A stretch of 47,036 nt of DNA from a virus (Duplodnaviria > Heunggongvirae > Uroviricota > Caudoviricetes), in the IMG/VR virus record IMGVR_UViG_3300007609_001205, positions 104,834-151,869 of that record; one strand, written 5' to 3'. Below, in pieces: positions 3,607 through 46,517 of this stretch. Numbering within the stretch: position 1 is the stretch's first letter; each line of letters starts with the position of its first letter. The notes beneath the pieces are model-generated. The model had not been told where the DNA came from, made no database searches, and saw only the letters and a list, made by a program, of their open reading frames with translations. The position numbers were made by a program, and so were the translations under genes.

Positions 3607-5078
3607 CTTACAATAACTTGATAAGGATATTTTCTACCATCATCTACACTTTCCTCAAACTCCTTATTGGTTTTATCCAAATGAGATTTCATTTTTACAA
3701 AATCTGATTCCTCTTTGAAACCCAATAAAAATCTACTATCTTTCTTCCATGGACCACCAAGCCTACAACTCCAAGCACGGTGACCCTCGACCATTTTACG
3801 TGCATCTATACCAGCATCTTTGAGCAAATTACCAACTGCTTCAAGTGTGTAAGAATTATCTAACCCACTATTTTCTTTTTCCAAATCTTCTTTGGTTAAA
3901 ACATCTTTCTTTGCTGATTCTACTTTGGTAGCCAAATCATCTTTTGATGATTCATTAAAATTTCCAAAATTCTTTAAATGTTCCATAATATCTTTCTTCT
4001 TTTTTTTACTCTCAATGGAGTTCTTCTTCTTTTTAACATCCTCTTCTTCTTCTAATTCTTTAGAAACCTTCGCAAGTTCTTTTGAGGATTTTTTAAGTAT
4101 CGAATTGGTAGAGTTCTCACTATCAGTGTATATATTATCTGATAATTTACCAAAATCTTTAAACCCCACTAATGAGGATTGAAGTCCCGGAGTCCCACCA
4201 ACAAAGGTATTGGCATTTGATTCTATTTTACGAACTATTTTCTTCATATCATTTGGGTCATTTGTATTCTTTATAACATATTCCTTTATATGTGTGAATT
4301 CCTCATGGTCTAAATTTTTAATAAGATCTTCCATATGTCGTACATTTCCTAGATCATCATCAGAAAATCCTATCTTTGCATATACACCTAACTCACCTGC
4401 CCACTTATTGACCTTCTGTTTAAAGTCAAGTAACGCCTTTTCCTTTTCCTTTTCGGGGTTACTTGTATCACCACCCCGTGATGGTGCAGATATACCAACC
4501 AGATCACAATGCGATATATATCGTTTAAACACCCCATTATCACTTGGCTTACCTTGTATTTTCCGAGGTATGTCTTTAATATCCTTTCCAAATTGATATT
4601 CAAATCGGATAAGGTTCATATACATTGTACTCTTTTGGTCATCAGTCAGATAATCATCTATAATGTATTCTATACCTTTGGCAATCGATTTTGGTTCATG
4701 ACCACGGGCTGTTATAATAGCAAAAAGTGATCCATTCACGAGACATTCAATGAAGTCATCCCATGATGGACCAAACTTCTCATCTTTTATTGCCGATATA
4801 ACATCCTCGAAAAAGGCATTAGAACCCCTCGGACCATTATCACGGAACTCAGAAAAAGCCTTTTCTGGATCATTATCAATGATTCTATAATCGTCATCTG
4901 ATCTAACTGAAGCAAATTCACTGGTTGAAATATCAACTGGAACCCATTCATCATCTACTAGTCTTTCCATATGGATGACTGTAGGCATATTCAGAATATT
5001 ATCATCTACATCAAAGGCATAGAATAATATATGATCACCTGACCAATTCTCATTATATGATGAGAATCTGGTTATCAC
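3600..5078 (-). CDS. HAD-superfamily phosphatase-like protein with charged linker and extra C-terminal domain
   Basis: Motif I FDVDD, motif II ITAR, motif IV FSDDD. Confidence 0.7.
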   Translation of the reverse strand: MITRFSSYNENWSGDHILFYAFDVDDNILNMPTVIHMERLVDDEWVPVDISTSEFASVRSDDDYRIIDNDPEKAFSEFRDNGPRGSNAFFEDVISAIKDEKFGPSWDDFIECLVNGSLFAIITARGHEPKSIAKGIEYIIDDYLTDDQKSTMYMNLIRFEYQFGKDIKDIPRKIQGKPSDNGVFKRYISHCDLVGISAPSRGGDTSNPEKEKEKALLDFKQKVNKWAGELGVYAKIGFSDDDLGNVRHMEDLIKNLDHEEFTHIKEYVIKNTNDPNDMKKIVRKIESNANTFVGGTPGLQSSLVGFKDFGKLSDNIYTDSENSTNSILKKSSKELAKVSKELEEEEDVKKKKNSIESKKKKKDIMEHLKNFGNFNESSKDDLATKVESAKKDVLTKEDLEKENSGLDNSYTLEAVGNLLKDAGIDARKMVEGHRAWSCRLGGPWKKDSRFLLGFKEESDFVKMKSHLDKTNKEFEESVDDGRKYPYQVIVSY

Positions 5079-10037: not shown

Positions 10038-11789
10038 TTATCCACCGGTTATAAACCCACTTAAAGTATCCCCACCAAAATCTCTGAGTGAATTCCTAAC
10101 GTCAAAAAAGAACTGATTTGAAATACCATCAACAATCTGACTTTGATAAACATTTGTCGGTTCAGACATTCTACCAATACCAAAGGAATTCCTTATTTGA
10201 TCAATCGAATCATTCACCAAAGAAAATTGTGTATTCAGTTGCCTCTGTGCTTCTTGTAATGCTGCATTTTTAAGACCATTCAATAACCTCGATGCTGCCG
10301 AACTTCTTTGATTATTTGCAAAATCATCAAGTGTTGCACCGGGTGTTATATTATCCCCCTCTGGACCCATCACAGACCCATTTGGTGAAACATCTTTTAA
10401 CTTGAAATTTCCAGTGTTTGTTATAAACCCGGCTCTTTGTGGTATATCAACCGATGTTCCAAGTGGTTGTGGATTTACTTGGTGGTTATTAACTTCCTTA
10501 AACACTTCTTGACCCGGATTATAACGAATGAATGCCATGTCTGCATTTTTATATGCAAGTTGTATCTCCCATTTGTCAGTTACCTCTGGTTTCGATCCTA
10601 AATCGATTGAATCTGGATGTGTTGCCTTACTGAAAAAGAATTGGCATTCATATACCTTATACTCATATTTTGATAGATTTGATCTCAGAATCTCCAATTT
10701 GGACAAGTTCTCTTCAACACTTGCCCCCTTTTTAACACTTACAAAATTTCTAAGTTCAGAGATATTCAATTTCATATCAAATCTGAGAAGGTTCTCAGGA
10801 CATATCGATTTACCACGTAACCTAGACCAATACAATGATTTATAAAGTGTGTATAATGTACCCATATTAAGTGTTGTGTCCTCATAAAAACCCAATGTAA
10901 GGAGATCATTCATATAATCGACAAATGCATTATGCTTCCCGGGTGTATTACTTTCTGATAGTTTATCAAGACCACCAATGGATTTAACGTAATAGAATTT
11001 ATTTTTTCGGAACTCTTCTGAATTAAAATCCGTCTTGAATATGGAATTGGGTTCTATACCATTAAAGGTAACCCTTCTTGAAAATCTAAAATATTTGGAA
11101 AGTTCTCTTACAAACTCGTAATATATTTCAATTCTTGAAGAAACCTCATCATCCAACCCATTTGACCATTCACCTAAAAGAAATTCTTCCAATGCACCAT
11201 TTAACAATGGGGATGCATCAACATCAATAACAATATCAAACCCAAAATACACAGGGTCTTCGTTATCGTGTGGTGTTATATAATCACCTTCATCATAATT
11301 CCAAATACGTGATTTACTTTGTTCGAATGAATTTAAGTTAGTGGCAGTTTCGAATGACTGCAAAACAGTTTCTGCATTATCATAATCGAGTTTGAATTTG
11401 AAATCACTAGTAGACACATCACCATATTTGTCATACTCACCATCACTACTTGCAAGTGATTTATAAATATCATTGGTGTTTCTCATTTCGGATGTGGAAG
11501 GTGGTATGACTTTAAATTCAGGATCACCACCTGTCCAATCAGAACTCACTGTTTTATAATACTCAACCGGTGTAAACCCAGGCCGTTGATTTGAAGTTTT
11601 GTCTATGAGTGTTTCTTTCAAAGAAACCATTGCCTTACCATCAGGTGGTCCAGTTCTATTATTAACATGTTTGTTGGATGGGTGACCGGGGTCGTTAAAG
11701 CCGGGTAATTGACCCGCCCTTGGGTTACCCAGTGCATCATTCAATTGATCACCTGCATTTTGAAAAAATCTATTTAGACCATCTGCCAT
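10038..11789 (-). CDS. probable virion structural (baseplate/tail) protein
   Basis: 583 aa, adjacent to the gp5-like gene, late-motif upstream; family not confidently recognised. Confidence 0.5.
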   Translation of the reverse strand: MADGLNRFFQNAGDQLNDALGNPRAGQLPGFNDPGHPSNKHVNNRTGPPDGKAMVSLKETLIDKTSNQRPGFTPVEYYKTVSSDWTGGDPEFKVIPPSTSEMRNTNDIYKSLASSDGEYDKYGDVSTSDFKFKLDYDNAETVLQSFETATNLNSFEQSKSRIWNYDEGDYITPHDNEDPVYFGFDIVIDVDASPLLNGALEEFLLGEWSNGLDDEVSSRIEIYYEFVRELSKYFRFSRRVTFNGIEPNSIFKTDFNSEEFRKNKFYYVKSIGGLDKLSESNTPGKHNAFVDYMNDLLTLGFYEDTTLNMGTLYTLYKSLYWSRLRGKSICPENLLRFDMKLNISELRNFVSVKKGASVEENLSKLEILRSNLSKYEYKVYECQFFFSKATHPDSIDLGSKPEVTDKWEIQLAYKNADMAFIRYNPGQEVFKEVNNHQVNPQPLGTSVDIPQRAGFITNTGNFKLKDVSPNGSVMGPEGDNITPGATLDDFANNQRSSAASRLLNGLKNAALQEAQRQLNTQFSLVNDSIDQIRNSFGIGRMSEPTNVYQSQIVDGISNQFFFDVRNSLRDFGGDTLSGFITGG

Positions 11790-37817: not shown

Positions 37818-38243
37818 ATGAGTGATGTAAGTAATATAGGTGAAATGGAAGGCAAAACCATATACCGGATTAACCAATCAAACTTTGACGAGGAGGATTA
37901 TATTGAATTCATTTGCACCGATGGGTGGATATATAAAATGTATCACACACAAGATTGTTGTGAAAATGTTACAATCGATGATATTATAGGGGATTTATCC
38001 GATCTGTTAGACACACCATTAACAATGGCAGATGAATCCTGTAATAGTAATGACAGTGATTGTGAGTCAGAAACATGGACATTCTATCGTTTTGCAACTG
38101 TTAATGGGTATATCACCATAAGATGGCATGGAACATCGAATGGTTACTATTCTGAAAGTGTTGATGTGTATAAAAGATACGACATTCAGAAAGCAAGAAA
38201 ATATAAATTGGGTACTATATTAGATAATGGAAAAGATATGTGA
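37818..38243 (+). CDS. conserved phage hypothetical protein (MYHTQDCCENV type)
   Basis: MYHTQDCCE, TWTFYRFAT, WHGTSNGYYSE motifs; T4-type TATAAATA at 37783-37790. Confidence 0.75.
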   Translation: MSDVSNIGEMEGKTIYRINQSNFDEEDYIEFICTDGWIYKMYHTQDCCENVTIDDIIGDLSDLLDTPLTMADESCNSNDSDCESETWTFYRFATVNGYITIRWHGTSNGYYSESVDVYKRYDIQKARKYKLGTILDNGKDM

Positions 38244-38481
38244 TATTAACAATCTACCAGTCTATGTCGATAAGTATATGGAAAAAAATAAGATACATAT
38301 TGGTCGGAAAGGTAACCAAAAACAATTTGTGATTTGTGGGCAGGAAGTAGGTGAAATATTAAAAAACTTCCTTATGTGTAAAAGAAGAAATTCAGTTATA
38401 GATAATGTTCTCGATGAACTCATCCCACATAAGATAGACATACTAAGTCAATTTGGAAATATTTTCCAACGAAACTCATAA
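38227..38481 (+). CDS. hypothetical protein
   Basis: ORF track. Confidence 0.55.
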   Translation: MEKICDINNLPVYVDKYMEKNKIHIGRKGNQKQFVICGQEVGEILKNFLMCKRRNSVIDNVLDELIPHKIDILSQFGNIFQRNS

Positions 38482-38511
38482 TTGCTGAATTGTAAAAAAA
38501 ATTAAAATAAT

Positions 38512-38542
38512 TTTGGAGTTTAACAAAACTTTATTAACTTTG
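38512..38542 (+). promoter_or_regulatory. Bacteroidota primary-sigma promoter for the leader/tRNA array
   Basis: TTTG (38512-38515) - 19 nt - TAACTTTG (38535-38542). Confidence 0.75.
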
Positions 38543-38594
38543 TACTCTATAACGAAAAAGGAAGAAATAAAACTTAATATATAACAACAAGAAA

Positions 38595-38702
38595 ATGAAT
38601 ACATTAGTATCTAATATCAAGAATGGAAAATGCTTTAAATGGCATTTTAAATCATACCTATCCGGTTTTGATAATAGGATTACTATGTATGACTTTCTAT
38701 GA
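38595..38702 (+). CDS. attenuator leader peptide 1 (35 aa, MNTLVSNIKNGKCFKWHFKSYLSGFDNRITMYDFL)
   Basis: Read manually; consecutive TTT AAA TGG CAT TTT AAA at 38634-38651. Confidence 0.75.
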   Translation: MNTLVSNIKNGKCFKWHFKSYLSGFDNRITMYDFL

Positions 38703-38742
38703 TAAGATAGAATAACACACAAAGGTAATTTCAAAGCCGGAT
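38660..38742 (+). promoter_or_regulatory. antiterminator helix
   Basis: ATCCGGTTTTGA (38660-38671) pairs 12/12 (one G-U) with TCAAAGCCGGAT (38731-38742), which overlaps the terminator 5' arm. Confidence 0.75.
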
Positions 38743-38766
38743 TTCGAAAGAGATCCGGCTTTTTTT
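38733..38766 (+). terminator. intrinsic terminator directly upstream of the tRNA array
   Basis: AAAGCCGGATTTC-GAAA-GAGATCCGGCTTT plus T-run. Confidence 0.9.
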
Positions 38767-38775
38767 ATTTTACAT

Positions 38776-38848
38776 GGTGGATGTAGCTCAGGGGAAGAGT
38801 GTCGGTTTGTGAAACCGAAGGTCGGGATTTCGAAACTCCTCATCCACA
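38776..38848 (+). tRNA. tRNA-His(GTG), G-1 opposite A73, T-stem mismatch
   Basis: Cloverleaf folded by hand; anticodon 38809-38811; no encoded CCA. Confidence 0.8.
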
Positions 38849-38850
38849 CA

Positions 38851-38921
38851 TAGTCAGAACTGATGTGGTGCAGTGCCCCTGAGAAACAGGGGGATTTGAG
38901 GGTTCGATTCCCTCCTGACAA
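38851..38921 (+). tRNA. atypical tRNA-like element (nominal GAA anticodon, no U33)
   Basis: Perfect T-arm GAGGG-TTCGATT-CCCTC; acceptor core GTCAG/CTGAC; anticodon arm CCCCT-GAGAAAC-AGGGG. Confidence 0.5.
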
Positions 38922-38926
38922 AAATT

Positions 38927-39000
38927 GGCTTCGTAACTCAGCCGGGTAGAGTGACAGACTGAAAATCTGTTGGTCATGGGTTCAAATCCCATCGAAGCCA
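38927..39000 (+). tRNA. tRNA-Phe(GAA)
   Basis: Canonical cloverleaf; ACAGA-CTGAAAA-TCTGT. Confidence 0.95.
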
Positions 39001-39009
39001 CAAACATAC

Positions 39010-39082
39010 GATCTCGTAGCTCAGTTGGTAGAGCATTCCCCTTTTAAGGGAAGGGTCGTGGGTTCGAGGCCTACCGGGATCA
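39010..39082 (+). tRNA. tRNA-Lys(TTT)
   Basis: Canonical cloverleaf; TTCCC-CTTTTAA-GGGAA. Confidence 0.95.
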
Positions 39083-39091
39083 CTAAAATAT

Positions 39092-39183
39092 GGTGATTGT
39101 AGCTGAATGGTATGTAGTACCGTAAGGGAACAAGCACTTGGTTGTGACCCAAGAGGATGCCGGTTCGAGTCCGGTCTTTCACC
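39092..39183 (+). tRNA. tRNA-His(GTG) with G-1:C73 and greatly expanded D-loop
   Basis: CTTGG-TTGTGAC-CCAAG; 28-nt D-loop (39105-39132); two T-T mismatches in acceptor stem. Confidence 0.8.
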
Positions 39184-39191
39184 CAAAATAT

Positions 39192-39265
39192 GGCACCGTA
39201 ACTCAGTCTGGTAGAGTGGTCCCCTGAAGAGGGAAGGGTCGTTGGTTCAAATCCAACCGGTGCCA
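39192..39265 (+). tRNA. tRNA-Phe(GAA), G37 variant
   Basis: GTCCC-CTGAAGA-GGGAA; full acceptor and T arms. Confidence 0.9.
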
Positions 39266-39280
39266 CAGAAAATATTAAAT

Positions 39281-39355
39281 GCAGGAGTAGCTCAGCCTGG
39301 TCAGAGCAACGGTCTCCAAAACCGTGTGTCGGTGGTTCGAATCCATCCTCCTGTG
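39281..39355 (+). tRNA. tRNA-Trp(CCA)
   Basis: ACGGT-CTCCAAA-ACCGT; canonical arms. Confidence 0.93.
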
Positions 39356-39369
39356 CAAAAAAAAATAGA

Positions 39370-39411
39370 ATGAGAATGAAAACTAAACGGAAATATAAAC
39401 AGTTTAGTTAG
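39370..39411 (+). CDS. Lys-rich leader peptide 2 (MRMKTKRKYKQFS)
   Basis: 4 AAA codons in 13; stop overlaps hairpin 39405-39434; precedes two tRNA-Lys genes and lysS. Confidence 0.55.
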   Translation: MRMKTKRKYKQFS

Positions 39412-39439
39412 ACTTGATGAAAAGAGTCTAACTACATTA

Positions 39440-39532
39440 GGCTCTGTCGTATAGCGGCCATTACACCTCCCTTTTAAGGAGATGAGGTAATCAAGTCCTC
39501 GACCGTGGGTTCGAGTCCCACCAGAGCCACCA
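39440..39532 (+). tRNA. tRNA-Lys(TTT) with long variable arm and encoded CCA
   Basis: CCTCC-CTTTTAA-GGAGA; 22-nt variable region with GAGG/CCTC stem; ACCA end. Confidence 0.85.
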
Positions 39533-39616
39533 GCGTTTGTGGGTGAGTGGTCGAAACCAATAGTCTCTTAAACTATCTCCGTAAGGACATCGCAGGTCCG
39601 AATCCTGCCAAACGCA
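39533..39616 (+). tRNA. tRNA with Lys(CTT) anticodon on a class II (Leu/Ser/Tyr-like) body
   Basis: ATAGT-CTCTTAA-ACTAT; D-arm GGT-GAGTGGTCGAA-ACC; variable arm CTCCGTAAGGACATC; T-loop TCCGAAT; A73. Confidence 0.85.
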
Positions 39617-39669
39617 CATCGAACCCATAATGTGTATATTAAGGCACTTACATTCACAATATATACATT

Positions 39670-40617
39670 ATGGAATATTATGAAGAAATACAAAAATACT
39701 ATGATGATGGACATACAATTGCGGAAACATGTTTAAAATTCAATATAAGTGAGAGTAAAGCATATCGGGCATCAAAAAGAGGACAACTAAAATTTAGAAG
39801 TCTGAGTGAAGCGATGAAAATATCATGTAAAAAGAAACCTAGAAAGCATACAGATGAAACAAAAGAAAAACTAAGTAAGATACGTAAAGAATATCTTCGA
39901 AAAAATCCAAATAAAGTCCCATACCTATTAAACCACAGTAGTAAAGGATCGTATCCGGAAAAATACTTTACTGAGGTATTTAAAAGGGAAGGATTAGATG
40001 TTGTTAAAAAATTTAGAGTTTCTTTATATGAACTTGACTTTTCTATACCACATAAAAAGATAGATATTGAAATAGATGGGAATCAACATTATGATGATAT
40101 TAAAATAGTTGAAAGTGATATTAGGAGAAATGAATTTCTCGAAACAGAAGGATGGGATGTAATACGTATAAATTGGTCAAACTATCAAAAATTAAATTAT
40201 AAAGAGAAAAATATGTTCATAAATGACCTCAAATCTTATGTAAATAATTTAAGTGAAATCAAACCAACCATAACCACTAAACCAAGTATGAGAGGAAAAA
40301 ATTTATGTGAATGTGGTGGATTAAAAACAAAAAAATCTAAACTATGTAAAATATGTAGGCACGAAAACTCTAAAAAAAGAGATATTAAATCTTATAAATC
40401 AGAACGTAGAAAAAAATATAAATGCAATTCTTGTGGGAATAAATGTACAAATAAAAATAAACGATGTCGTAAATGTTACGAGATTGATAATAGAAAGGTT
40501 ACCGACCGACCAAGCAAAGAATCACTCATAAAAGATATTGAAAACATAGGATATTCTGCAACGGGTCGAAAGTATGGTGTTAGTGATAATACTATACGAA
40601 AATGGATTAAGAATTAA
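39670..40617 (+). mobile_element. free-standing homing endonuclease-like gene (NUMOD3-like + Vsr/DUF559 nuclease + Zn ribbons + HTH)
   Basis: KHTDETKEKLSKIRK; ELDF..IEIDGNQH..D..RNEFLE..GWDVIRI; CECG, CKIC, CNSC, CRKC; ATGRKYGVSDNTIRKW. Confidence 0.8.
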
Positions 40618-40632
40618 TTAAAATCACAAATA

Positions 40633-41832
40633 ATGGAAACACTAAATTTTAGAATTTTAAACATCAGATTGCACGGTAGGTCAGCCTTTATGGATGTTCT
40701 AACCAACGGTGAAAACTTACAGTGTTATATAAACTCACAAGTTGAAAACTTCACCGAGATAACAGAACTACCAAATGGTTCTCACCTTGGCTGTCGTGGA
40801 GAATACTTCACAACAAGAACAGGACACTACACATTCAGAATACTTGAAGCAGACATTCTGAATATTCCCAACAGACCATTACCTGTTGTTCAAAATGATG
40901 GTGAAACACTGTATAACATAACAACTGATAGAGAAGATATCCGAAGAAGAAGATATCTGAACACTATACTCAATCCAAATGAAAGAGATATATTTGTTAC
41001 TCGATCAAGACTTATCTCTTTGATAAGAAACTTCTATAATGACAATGGTTATATGGAGGTAGAAACACCTATCTTACAACCAGTATATGGTGGTGCAGAG
41101 GCAACTCCATTCACTACACATTTCGAATCACTTGATATGGATTGTTATATGAGAATTGCACCTGAATTGTATCTTAGAAGAATGATCATTGGTGGTTATG
41201 ATAGAGTTTTCGAGATAGGTAGAAATTTTCGAAATGAAGGGATTTCTTCTCGACACAATCCAGAATTCACTGTTATGGAATCATATACTGCATATGAGGA
41301 TTATAACTTCAGTATGGACATGGTTGAAAACATTCTTTTGGGAATTCATAATGAATTTGGAACCGTTACATACAATGGGAATGAAATAGATTTCTCAAAT
41401 GTATCAAGAATATCATTCGTGGAATCAATTGAAAGATACTATGGTGAAACAGAAAGCCTTTCAGATATTGAATTGAATGAGTTGTTTGAAACACACGTTG
41501 AGCCAAATTTGATACAACCAACAATGGTATATGATTACCCATCAAGTATAAGTCCATTGGCACAAGTGAGATCGGACAATGAAAACATTGCCGAAAGATT
41601 TGAACTTTTCATCTCAGGTATGGAAATTGCCAATGCCTATTCAGAACTTAACGATATAACCAGACACGTTGAGAATATTGGAGACGATGACCAAGATTTC
41701 ATTGATGCACTATCATATGGTATGCCACCAACAACCGGTATCGGTATCGGTATCGATAGATTGGTTATGATACTTACTGATAGAACAATCAGAGATGTTA
41801 TCTATTTCCCTATGATGAGAAACCGTTCCTGA
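40633..41832 (+). CDS. lysS: class II lysyl-tRNA synthetase, compact and lysine-free
   Basis: OB-fold N-terminus; EVETPIL, GGAEATPF, RIAPELYL, FRNEG..HNPEF, E.ANAYSELND, YGMPP..GIGIDRLVM. Confidence 0.95.
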   Translation: METLNFRILNIRLHGRSAFMDVLTNGENLQCYINSQVENFTEITELPNGSHLGCRGEYFTTRTGHYTFRILEADILNIPNRPLPVVQNDGETLYNITTDREDIRRRRYLNTILNPNERDIFVTRSRLISLIRNFYNDNGYMEVETPILQPVYGGAEATPFTTHFESLDMDCYMRIAPELYLRRMIIGGYDRVFEIGRNFRNEGISSRHNPEFTVMESYTAYEDYNFSMDMVENILLGIHNEFGTVTYNGNEIDFSNVSRISFVESIERYYGETESLSDIELNELFETHVEPNLIQPTMVYDYPSSISPLAQVRSDNENIAERFELFISGMEIANAYSELNDITRHVENIGDDDQDFIDALSYGMPPTTGIGIGIDRLVMILTDRTIRDVIYFPMMRNRS

Positions 41833-42651: not shown

Positions 42652-42735
42652 ATTATTCACATAGAATACAAAGGAAACTTAAAATTAAAAAGAAATAAAC
42701 CCAAACACTCACCGCAATTGCTCATATATAATAAT

Positions 42736-43917
42736 ATGAAATATATCTTAACATTACTTCTTACACTACCATTCATTTCAATTTCACAATCCGTGACGAT
42801 AGATGGTGGATTTATACGAATGACCGGTGATTCCAGGATCATAATAGTCAATGGTGGTCCGGATGCATTCAGTGTAACATCAAATGGTGGTGGTATAATA
42901 ATGGAAGATGAAAATTCTGTTGTTCAATGGAATGATGTGAACTCAATCGGTACATATATGATACCATTTGCATCTTCCTCAGGTGATACTATTCCATTTA
43001 CTTATGAAATAAGTGATGTTGGTGTGGGTGGTGATAACATAACATTCAATTCACATGAGGTTGCACCGGATAACTTTCCCATGCCAACCGGAGTCCTTCA
43101 TATAACAGATGACTTTGGAACTGACAATGGACCAAGTGTAATAGACCGTTACTGGATAATAACACCAAATGGATACACGACAAAACCAAGGGGGACTTAT
43201 ACATTCACATACGATGACAATGATTGGAATGACCCAACCAATTTCATAAATGAGGCAAACTTAACTGCCCAACGATATAATTCAGATGAAGATAAATGGT
43301 TAGATTGGTTATATGGACCAACTACGAATACCATCACTAACCAACTTACCATAACAATAGCCAACCAATTGGATCAATATTCGGTATGGACATTATCCGA
43401 TATAAATAACCCATTGCCAATAGAACTTGTACGTTTCACGGTTGATTGTGAAAGTAGTGTTGTTACTTGGGTAACTGTAACTGAAACCAATACAAGCCAT
43501 TATATCATACAAGGTTCTGATGATGCATATGAATGGAACGACATTAGAACAGTAGAGGCTGCCGGAAATTCAAATCAAATTTTAAAATACAGTGAAAAGG
43601 TTGATCCATATGGATATTATCGATTACACCAATTTGATGTTGATGGTAGTAACAAATACTCTGACATTCTTTATGGATGTCCGGATTTCGAATCTATAAA
43701 TGTAATTGTTTTCCCCAACCCAAATGATGGAAGGTTTTTCATAAACCATCCGGGTATATATAATATTGAAATATATGATATGGTCGGTAAATTGATATTC
43801 AGTGAAAAAACAGACCAAAGGTTTTATGATATGACACACTTACCGAATGGAAGATATGTTGTGAACATACATAATGAAATAAATATACACACATTCAATA
43901 TGATAAAAATAGATTGA
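42736..43917 (+). CDS. secreted protein with T9SS type A C-terminal sorting domain
   Basis: Start moved to 42736 (MKYILTLLL signal peptide); PLPIELVRF; VFPNP...IYDMVGK...LPNGRYVV. Confidence 0.85.
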   Translation: MKYILTLLLTLPFISISQSVTIDGGFIRMTGDSRIIIVNGGPDAFSVTSNGGGIIMEDENSVVQWNDVNSIGTYMIPFASSSGDTIPFTYEISDVGVGGDNITFNSHEVAPDNFPMPTGVLHITDDFGTDNGPSVIDRYWIITPNGYTTKPRGTYTFTYDDNDWNDPTNFINEANLTAQRYNSDEDKWLDWLYGPTTNTITNQLTITIANQLDQYSVWTLSDINNPLPIELVRFTVDCESSVVTWVTVTETNTSHYIIQGSDDAYEWNDIRTVEAAGNSNQILKYSEKVDPYGYYRLHQFDVDGSNKYSDILYGCPDFESINVIVFPNPNDGRFFINHPGIYNIEIYDMVGKLIFSEKTDQRFYDMTHLPNGRYVVNIHNEINIHTFNMIKID

Positions 43918-45350: not shown

Positions 45351-45735
45351 ATGCCGGGAATAATATCACCACACACTAATTTAGGATAAGTGCCTTTACC
45401 TGCCACGAGAAGTTCAAATTTAATATTAGACCAAAACGGGAAATTAACCATATTGAGAAGTAATGGTTCGTCTGAACAAATAAGTGCAACTGGTGGAGTA
45501 TATGGATCTGGGCCAATTGGACCAACCAGACCTAAAAGGAGCAACTGGTTCTAACGGAATTTCCACCCTATTATATGAAATGGCATATGAAACATTCTAC
45601 AATGGATTTTCATTTTCGACATTAACACCACCATATTACAAGATAACAGGTTTTCAAACAGACGGATTCATTGGTTATCGTATTACCAACTTCTTAAACA
45701 TTTTGGTATATAAAAAACATATCATATATTTGTAA
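45351..45735 (+). pseudogene. decayed collagen-repeat (fibre-like) gene
   Basis: MPGIISPHTNLG*VPLP...GPIGPT, then frameshift into KGATGSNGISTLL... Confidence 0.5.
45702..45732 (+). promoter_or_regulatory. Bacteroidota primary-sigma promoter for the His leader/hisS
   Basis: TTTG (45702-45705) - 19 nt - TATATTTG (45725-45732). Confidence 0.75.
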
Positions 45736-45736
45736 T

Positions 45737-45781
45737 ATGAACATGAGCACACATACCCATCAAAGAACACATTATATGTGA
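45737..45781 (+). CDS. His-rich attenuator leader peptide 3 (MNMSTHTHQRTHYM)
   Basis: 3 CAT codons (45752, 45758, 45770); alternative start at 45743. Confidence 0.8.
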   Translation: MNMSTHTHQRTHYM

Positions 45782-45820
45782 TCGGGAAAGTTGTGTTAAG
45801 TATAATTAGCAAACCCGATT
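45780..45820 (+). promoter_or_regulatory. antiterminator helix overlapping the leader stop
   Basis: GATCGGG (45780-45786) pairs with CCCGATT (45814-45820). Confidence 0.7.
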
Positions 45821-45835
45821 TATTCGGGTTTTTTT
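45811..45835 (+). terminator. intrinsic terminator upstream of hisS
   Basis: AAACCCGA-TTTAT-TCGGGTTT followed by T-run. Confidence 0.9.
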
Positions 45836-45860
45836 ATGTCCAAAAATTAAATATTAGAAA

Positions 45861-46517
45861 ATGAAAAACGAAATTAAATTAGAATCAACATACAAGGGTA
45901 CACGAATATTATGTGGGGAAATTGCAACCTATAAAAGAAAACTAATAAATGAAATGGTTGATAAAGTCACAGAGAAAGGATTCACAGAAGTAATGATACC
46001 TATAATCCAAAAACAAGACACTTTCCTTTCGAAAGTCGGTGATGAAAACCAAAAGATGATGTACTCGTTCAAAGACCGTGGGAATAGGGATCTCTGCCTT
46101 GCACCCGAATACACTGCCGTTGTTCAAAAATTGGCGAAAGAGGAATTTATATTTGGTAAAGGGAAACCTATGCCCGATGTAAAGTTATTTTACATTTCAG
46201 AATGTTTCCGAGGAGAGAACTCACAGAAAGGGAGATACCGACAATTTACACAATTTGGAGTGGAAATATTAAACCCCACAAAAGATTATTCTGACTACCT
46301 TTTGAATCTTGCAACTGAACTTATTTCTATGGTTACTCCGGATTATGAATATGATAAAGAGACAAGGAGGGGTCTTGATTATTATACCGAGGGAAAGGGG
46401 TTTGAAGTATCTTGCACTGAACTAGGGGCACAGAAACAGATATGTGGTGGTGGATCGTATGATGGTGGGATTGGATTTGCATTGGGTATTGATAGACTTA
46501 TATTAATTAAAGATTGA
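45861..46517 (+). CDS. hisS: minimal histidyl-tRNA synthetase (catalytic core only), histidine-free
   Basis: KGTR, motif 1 FTEVMIPII, LAPEYT, motif 2 FRGE..QKGRYRQFTQ, RGLDYY, GGGSYDG, motif 3 GFALGIDRL; no anticodon-binding domain. Confidence 0.88.
   Translation: MKNEIKLESTYKGTRILCGEIATYKRKLINEMVDKVTEKGFTEVMIPIIQKQDTFLSKVGDENQKMMYSFKDRGNRDLCLAPEYTAVVQKLAKEEFIFGKGKPMPDVKLFYISECFRGENSQKGRYRQFTQFGVEILNPTKDYSDYLLNLATELISMVTPDYEYDKETRRGLDYYTEGKGFEVSCTELGAQKQICGGGSYDGGIGFALGIDRLILIKD

Follow-up and report, generated by a model that had tools for sequence, protein, structure and literature searches.

A probable leader-peptide attenuator with a tRNA operon as its output in a phage genome

Results

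Organization of the tRNA locus

We analysed a 47,036-nt stretch of DNA from a giant marine phage, here called the window, which forms the end of a 151,869-base IMG/VR record with an estimated completeness of 25% and a GC content of 33%. The window holds the sole tRNA array of the contig, and the anticodons of this array, called with ARAGORN and Rfam, are limited to His, Phe, Lys and Trp. Directly upstream of the array we observed a promoter, a short open reading frame (ORF) and an intrinsic terminator, laid out as follows.

38512 to 38542, + strand: Bacteroidota-type promoter, with TTTG at 38512-38515, 19 nt, and TAACTTTG at 38535-38542 (regex scan)
38576 to 38583, + strand: gene-start motif AATATATA, 11 nt 5' of the leader ATG (motif count on the contig)
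38595 to 38702, + strand: leader ORF, 35 codons plus TGA, peptide MNTLVSNIKNGKCFKWHFKSYLSGFDNRITMYDFL (ORF list, homologues)
38611 to 38627, + strand: region 1, predicted upstream partner of region 2 (anti-antiterminator; ribosome-free full-length MFE)
38627 to 38648, + strand: apical hairpin AAAATGC/GCATTTT at the control codons, which may act in pausing (MFE folds)
38634 to 38651, + strand: control codons F14 (TTT), K15 (AAA), W16 (TGG), H17 (CAT), F18 (TTT) and K19 (AAA) (sequence)
38660 to 38671, + strand: region 2, ATCCGGTTTTGA, putative 5' strand of the antiterminator and almost identical to the 3' arm of the terminator (duplex analysis)
38731 to 38742, + strand: region 3, TCAAAGCCGGAT, common to the antiterminator and the terminator 5' arm (sequence, duplex analysis)
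38733 to 38766, + strand: intrinsic terminator, with a 13-bp stem at 38733-38762, a GAAA loop at 38746-38749 and a T7 tract at 38760-38766 (terminator scan, folding)
38776 to 39356, + strand: putatively gated tRNA block of His, an aberrant tRNA-like gene, Phe, Lys(UUU), His with a D-loop insert, Phe and Trp (ARAGORN, Rfam)
39440 to 39617, + strand: two tRNA-Lys genes with long variable arms (UUU and CUU; class II-like arms) (ARAGORN, Rfam)

The promoter is of the type TTTG-N19-TAACTTTG, which we take to be the Bacteroidota sigma-A consensus. A regex scan of the contig placed matches directly upstream of a short leader ORF at 38512 and 45702 only, both in the window. The leader ATG at 38595 lies 53 nt past the promoter -7 box and is a credible start within a 5' leader. 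ATATATA is found within 30 nt upstream of 51 of the 166 long ORFs (31%), compared to 1.6% of random positions, and it precedes the start codon of nearly every leader reported here, the two His leaders being without an exact copy; the leader ORFs therefore start where real genes do. Across the contig, the AATATATA motif (in the window, for example, at 39658, 41839 and 46544) has a preferred spacing of 4-7 or 18-23 nt before starts and accompanies about one third of long ORFs; a role as a phage promoter or in marking translation starts is possible. The homologue of the leader ORF in the related contig L009 was annotated as a gene by a public pipeline.

The six control codons name exactly the four amino acids of the array, and further Lys codons are present at K9 (AAG, 38619-38621) and K12 (38628-38630). 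His, Phe, Lys and Trp account for 8 of the 16 residues in codons 5-20, against a background of 15.5% (binomial p = 0.0013). Phe and Lys are common residues at 33% GC and the FKWHFK run overlaps a palindrome, both of which would favour a chance coincidence of ORF, codon run and alternative helix in AT-rich DNA. Nevertheless, of the 1247 ORFs on the contig with 20 aa or more (six frames; 81,341 six-residue windows), the leader ORF is the only one to have a six-residue run of F, K, W and H with all four present.

The first tRNA-His starts with its G-1 at 38776, ~10 nt past the T7 run. A separate promoter would not fit between the T-run and the tRNA, and we rejected that arrangement. Several of the tRNA genes are unusual. 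The tRNA-like gene at 38851-38922 has the aberrant anticodon loop GAGAAAC and was called Phe by ARAGORN and left undetected by Rfam; the tRNA-His at 39093-39183 carries a 20-nt D-loop insert. In the relatives, tRNAs with anticodon loops of 6 or 8 nt occur mostly at array position 2 (third in L011; also in L130 and L134). Upstream of both tRNA-Lys genes with long variable arms, at 39370-39439, we observed a Lys-rich mini-ORF, MRMKTKRKYKQFS, and a 10-bp hairpin. Because this hairpin has no U-tract, the two genes probably belong to the putatively gated transcription unit. The same layout of mini-ORF, hairpin and long-arm tRNA-Lys is found in L009, L133 and L134, and the equivalent leader of L130 has a true terminator. 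Between the Lys tRNAs and the LysRS gene lies a very Lys-rich homing-endonuclease-like gene (39670-40617; NUMOD3, DUF559/REase, HTH; 53 Lys), and L009 has a similar gene in the equivalent position. The phage also has a tmRNA gene elsewhere on the contig, outside the window and on the minus strand (G000:C1:24366-24738, L135 467-839; Rfam RF00023, 59.9 bits, E = 1e-22), which was unreported by ARAGORN.

A Bacteroidota host is suggested by three findings, namely a type IX secretion sorting domain, the promoter type and the relatives. The sorting domain is C-terminal in an ORF at 42718-43917, and the relatives include a 656-kb record named uncultured marine phage. In flavobacteria, leader-peptide attenuation has been reported for amino-acid operons (PMC9723704). 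A blastn search of the GenBank phages returned nothing beyond generic tRNA similarity.

Folding of the leader

The terminator stem, located between the leader ORF and the tRNAs, contains 6 G-C pairs and has a free energy of -20.6 kcal/mol. Counting candidates from both strands of the 152-kb contig, it ranks in the top three, and no + strand candidate is stronger. Regions 2 and 3 (ATCCGGTTTTGA:TCAAAGCCGGAT) can form a helix of 12 bp with one G-U that is mutually exclusive with the terminator. This antiterminator duplex reaches -18.1 kcal/mol, compared to -7.7 ± 2.0 kcal/mol for dinucleotide shuffles, and none of 500 shuffles was as good; the fold of the whole 197-nt leader has a z score of -7.4 against shuffles. 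A sequence-only reading of this DNA had proposed the order of promoter, 35-aa leader, GNRA-capped (GAAA) terminator and tRNA ~10 nt on, the agreement of the F-K-W-H-F-K codons and the AAG codon at K9 with the array, and the 12-bp helix that excludes the terminator. Each of these held at the same positions, the codon assignment by sequence and anticodon calls alike.

The full-length MFE of the window leader combines 1:2 with 3:4. The 1:2 pairing joins 38611-38627 to 38661-38677; it is clear in L009 and non-uniform across the other relatives. The truncated ribosome-free transcript already favours the 2:3 antiterminator at equilibrium (P = 0.83), and the state without translation is therefore ambiguous. 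To place the ribosome in this picture, we folded transcripts that end before the terminator 3' arm with masking of all nucleotides as far as 12 nt beyond the A site, a model that counts everything 5' of the ribosome as unavailable. Across 18 leaders, predicted capture of the terminator 5' arm was ~0.8 with the A site on or before the control codons and dropped to ~0.1-0.5 a few codons later in most of them. For the window, the model gives K9, K12 and F14 to F18 as the effective sensor codons.

These folds support one half of a two-part proposal in the sequence-only reading. It held that a ribosome stalled at the control codons would leave region 2 free, as mask folding predicts, and that a ribosome reaching the stop codon would melt it. 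The latter does not follow, since 38660-38671 is uncovered when the ribosome is at the stop codon (38700). Instead, region 2 is masked while the ribosome crosses codons 21-27, and could later be recaptured by 38611-38627, as in the full-length MFE. Most of the seven relatives folded (L011, L130, L133, L134) also form a hairpin at the Trp codon, from differing sequences, and this hairpin may act as a pause element.

An Rfam cmscan of 38000-40000 at E ≤ 1 gave tRNA matches and sub-threshold noise only, with no T-box or amino-acid leader family. We rejected a T-box or other known riboswitch on this ground.

Homologous leaders in related phages

Homologues of the window LysRS form ~55 clusters with 52-81% identity on large phage contigs, and we compared the genomic contexts of members whose contig DNA was available. 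Leaders of 30-35 codons rich in His, Lys, Phe and Trp (HFKW leaders) that are homologous to the window's are present on eight related phage contigs, nine including the window, and all have terminators. The unit shared by L009, L011, L128, L130, L133 and L134 consists of a TTTG-N19-TAnnTTTG promoter, the AATATATA motif, an ORF of 30-35 codons and an intrinsic terminator. A His/Phe/Trp/Lys tRNA array begins 10-25 nt past the terminator in the relatives that carry this unit, except in L130, where the cargo is a HisRS-like gene, then a His/Phe/Trp/Lys array, and a TrpRS-like gene. The promoter motif pair precedes the leaders of these six contigs and also those of L136 and L137.

The HFKW peptides can be aligned as a single family whose residues 6-19 make up an H/K/F/W-rich core, with invariance limited to M1, one Trp and one Phe. 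The leaders of the window and L009 are separated by 5 synonymous codon changes and 13 replacements; the core residues CFKWHFKS are all retained, with K15 changing from AAA to AAG. Such synonymous variation at control codons is seen across the relatives (AAA/AAG, TTT/TTC, CAT/CAC) with the amino acids kept. We also considered the palindrome as the sole source of FKWHFK. L128 retains KFKWHFK without the window's palindrome, so the residues are no by-product of the hairpin, and this origin was rejected.

For a prospective search, a profile of seven leader peptides was run against 1.84 billion proteins. It returned five called peptides: one identical to the L009 leader, two that closely resemble the L128 and L133 leaders, and two that are distinct (L136 and L137). 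The latter, chosen by peptide similarity alone, both have the same promoter type, a terminator and a His/Phe/Trp/Lys array, and their in-ORF antiterminators match their own terminators (1/500 and 6/500 shuffles as good). A unit kept in eight relatives and predicted prospectively contradicts a chance origin, as do the rarity of the codon run and the shuffle result for the helix, and we regard coincidence as practically negligible.

Other searches added little. A single-sequence LysRS scan of IMG/VR gave no matches, and an alignment-based LysRS scan of the same database recovered one family member, L011. The DUF7448 neighbours in IMG/VR had no tRNA arrays nearby, and a degenerate DNA pattern from FKWHFK to tRNA-His gave a single chance match inside a gene.

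Co-variation of the putative switch strands

For each of the nine HFKW leaders, the strongest pairing of the ORF with the terminator 5' arm beats dinucleotide shuffles (0 to 29 of 500 as good). In each, the antiterminator strand lies within ORF nt 48-78 and starts at nt 48-66, directly 3' of the control codons. The strand itself varies by phage (GCCGGA, ACCGGT, GTCGAA, CCCGGA, GCTCGAAC, CCTGAAC and GTCCGAAC), and in every phage it is a near copy of that phage's own terminator 3' arm. Because the MAFFT alignment of the leaders lost the helix register, we replaced column-wise pair counting with a matrix of own versus other duplexes. Over 18 leaders of all classes, pairing with the own terminator averaged -11.9 kcal/mol, compared to -7.8 kcal/mol with the 17 others (permutation p < 5e-5). 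The Ser/Arg-class antiterminators are weak (shuffle p 0.09-0.21). Covariation in related phages had been named beforehand as a check, and the terminator/antiterminator pair is indeed conserved with co-variation in the nine homologous leaders.

These results bear on a rival account, in which an ordinary leaky terminator marks the end of the upstream gene cluster or of a gene for a small peptide. Polymerase would then reach the tRNAs through constitutive read-through, or a phage enzyme insensitive to the hairpin would transcribe them, and the 35-aa product would be a functional micro-protein. The upstream genes at 37818-38481 have no other terminator, the AATATATA motif might be a phage promoter, and the peptide core is conserved. 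However, three strands co-vary that a plain terminator would not need, a dedicated host-type promoter sits between the upstream gene and the leader, and the composition-matched unit also precedes other arrays and synthetases. Moreover, the peptide is free to change outside the control run, as the 13 replacements relative to L009 demonstrate (the two LysRS are 79% identical). We consider this account very unlikely.

Leader composition and cargo

Judged by sequence, leader composition tracks cargo in this phage family at the level of five leader classes. In addition to the HFKW leaders, Ser/Arg leaders (MKTIINISSSSSSSSRGNSNLIRRC in L009, MKTTMTITISRSRSSRSLPLVV in L011 and MKVMNITSSSSSSRSSNKIRRW in L133) precede Arg/Ser tRNA arrays, and Lys-rich leaders precede Lys tRNA blocks or LysRS (L127, L130, L131, L132). 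His leaders (MNMSTHTHQRTHYM at 45737-45781 of the window and MKTNTHTHHMTH in L009) precede HisRS-like genes. In L132 (OU342829.1, ~2900-2960), a GTG-started leader with eight consecutive Asn codons and a terminator precedes an AsnRS-like gene. Enrichment of the own amino-acid set in codons 5-20 gave binomial p values from 3e-2 to 5e-8, with 1e-3 to 3e-5 for each HFKW leader. The Ser/Arg leaders hold 0-1 HFKW residues, and Ser and Arg are at background level in most HFKW leaders. The match extends to individual codons: AGT is present in the Ser/Arg leaders of L009 and L133, whose arrays include tRNA-Ser(GCU), and absent from that of L011, whose array lacks it, and the Arg codons of the L011 leader, CGC and CGT, match its tRNA-Arg(GCG) and tRNA-Arg(ACG).

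The nine HFKW leaders are homologous and their composition does not amount to nine independent observations; the independence of this evidence rests on the different leader classes, not on the count of nine. Lys is a partial exception. All nine HFKW leaders have 3-4 Lys in their first 20 codons, with or without a Lys tRNA in the first block, and in L130, where separate terminators precede the Lys tRNAs, the HFKW leader is Lys-enriched all the same. The expectation from the window alone that control codons would follow array content in relatives is thus borne out by leader class, with a codon-tRNA link that is looser for Lys than for His, Phe and Trp.

This weighs on the possibility that the switch is real and is set by general translation capacity or coupling, or by an RNA-binding factor of phage or host, and not by specific aminoacyl-tRNAs, the H/K/F/W peptide being a family trait. 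The mask model frees the antiterminator for a stall anywhere 5' of codon 19, the Lys enrichment is independent of Lys tRNAs in the gated block, and the HFKW leaders are one homologous family, all as this possibility would have it. What it does not account for is that five leader classes match their own cargo, down to the link between AGY codons and tRNA-Ser(GCU), that every HFKW leader contains both Trp (1% background) and His (1.8%), and that control codons vary synonymously with their amino acids kept. The lack of a match to a T-box or other known RNA family also speaks against it. We regard such a non-specific switch as improbable and favour sensing of the specific codons.

We noted further units of related layout. 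At 45702-46517 of the window lies a second attenuator-like unit, with the promoter at 45702, the leader MNMSTHTHQRTHYM, a terminator with its T-run from 45829 and a HisRS-like gene that encodes 218 aa and no His; its counterpart in L009 (7877-8661) also encodes a protein with 0 His. L011 has a leader of alternating His and Phe, MKTLNINTHFHFHFENLELGVH, with a terminator at 10935-11003. Upstream of the Lys leader of L130, at 3990-4260, the sequence GGGTTCGATTCCCTTAATG(T/A)TGGCATC occurs three times and looks like the T-arm of a tRNA joined to the 3' half of the acceptor.

Synthetases without their cognate residue

The window LysRS (40633-41832; class II, 399 aa) contains no Lys, and the same is true of ~45 homologue clusters (52-81% identity), whereas the next, cellular-type relatives contain 11-59 Lys. 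Similarly, HisRS-like genes encode 0 His in three phages, and the AsnRS-like gene of L132 (3048-4418; class II synthetase, 456 aa) encodes 0 Asn. The SerRS of L009 (11304-12557), located downstream of the Ser/Arg leader and the Arg/Ser array, has 1 Ser in 417 residues. Synthetases without their cognate residue would stay translatable under the very shortage that stalls ribosomes on the matching leader. A full-text literature search found no description of a Lys-free phage LysRS.

Discussion

We consider it probable, from sequence and structure models, that the locus is a ribosome-mediated (leader-peptide) transcription attenuator with a tRNA operon as its output, and that the phage reserves synthesis of its His, Phe, Lys and Trp tRNAs for times when ribosomes are slow on these codons. 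This agrees with the original proposal, and the comparative evidence supports it through the codon-cargo match in five classes and the co-variation in nine homologous leaders. Leader translation, stalling, termination efficiency, the actual switch and the kind of shortage sensed are what we infer from these observations.

In the mechanism that we propose, host RNA polymerase would start at the 38512-38542 promoter and transcribe the 35-codon leader. If charged tRNA-His, -Phe, -Lys or -Trp were scarce, the ribosome would stall on codons 9-18 and leave 38660-38671 uncovered. This free strand would pair with 38731-38742 as it emerges, no terminator would form, and polymerase would enter the tRNA genes. 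With fast decoding, the ribosome would cover 38660-38671 during synthesis of the terminator, the hairpin at 38733-38762 would form, and transcription would stop at the T-run, 10 nt before tRNA-His. The choice between helices 2:3 and 3:4 would be set by ribosome position, as in the trp operon. The outcome would be negative feedback on decoding capacity, in which tRNAs for the four amino acids are made only while they are limiting.

Extra tRNA is no cure for a lack of amino acids, which makes loss of tRNA or of charging the more sensible input. We speculate that host shut-off, anticodon nucleases or the codon demand of the phage bring about this loss. More tentatively, and as a possibility that we would not yet call probable, the attenuator could be the sensor of an on-demand translation rescue against tRNA-depleting immunity (anticodon nucleases) or host shut-off, with each megaphage tRNA block having its own sensor. 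Stalled ribosomes would then switch on replacement tRNAs once host tRNA-His, -Phe, -Lys or -Trp has been destroyed or is left without its amino acid. This reading draws on the unusual tRNAs (long-variable-arm Lys, D-loop-insert His, odd anticodon loops) and on the downstream synthetases that would still be translatable.

If the attenuator operates as proposed, phages would induce their tRNA genes instead of expressing them constitutively, which bears on why phages carry tRNAs, for codon-usage matching or for defence against tRNA-targeting immunity. Leader composition would become a sequence-only readout of the decoding shortages that a phage expects, and compact, amino-acid-specific, tRNA-responsive switches would become available.

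Leader-peptide attenuation has been a textbook mechanism for ~50 years. To our knowledge, all described leader-peptide attenuators regulate genes for biosynthesis, transport or synthetase proteins, and our full-text literature search found no published attenuator gating tRNA genes. The first regulated genes in the window are tRNAs and not amino-acid biosynthesis, transport or synthetase proteins.

T-box leaders also use a terminator/antiterminator switch for translation-related genes and respond to the charging of a specific tRNA. However, they bind uncharged tRNA directly and do not need translation, and the window has no Stem I, specifier or T-box sequence (no Rfam match). We know of no T-box riboswitch upstream of phage tRNA genes. 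In pheST of E. coli, the pheM leader-peptide attenuator precedes an aminoacyl-tRNA synthetase gene, just as the K, H and N leaders of the phage family precede LysRS, HisRS and AsnRS-like genes. The output of pheST is protein, whereas the first genes past the window terminator are tRNAs, and the phage synthetases lack their cognate residue.

The multivalent leaders of enterobacteria, ilvGMEDA (Leu/Val/Ile) and thr (Thr/Ile), known alongside trpL, hisL, pheL and leuL, provide a further parallel in design. Like the ilv and thr leaders, the phage element has a short translated leader, as we propose, with a run of regulatory codons for more than one amino acid, an intrinsic terminator, and an exclusive antiterminator just 3' of the codons. 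There is no similarity to the enterobacterial leaders in sequence or to their Rfam models. Unlike those leaders, which control biosynthetic enzymes, it is a phage element that covers four amino acids and has a tRNA operon as its predicted output, and its product decodes the control codons. The regulated tRNA would decode its own sensor, and the attenuator would thereby act as a direct, virus-borne homeostat for decoding capacity.
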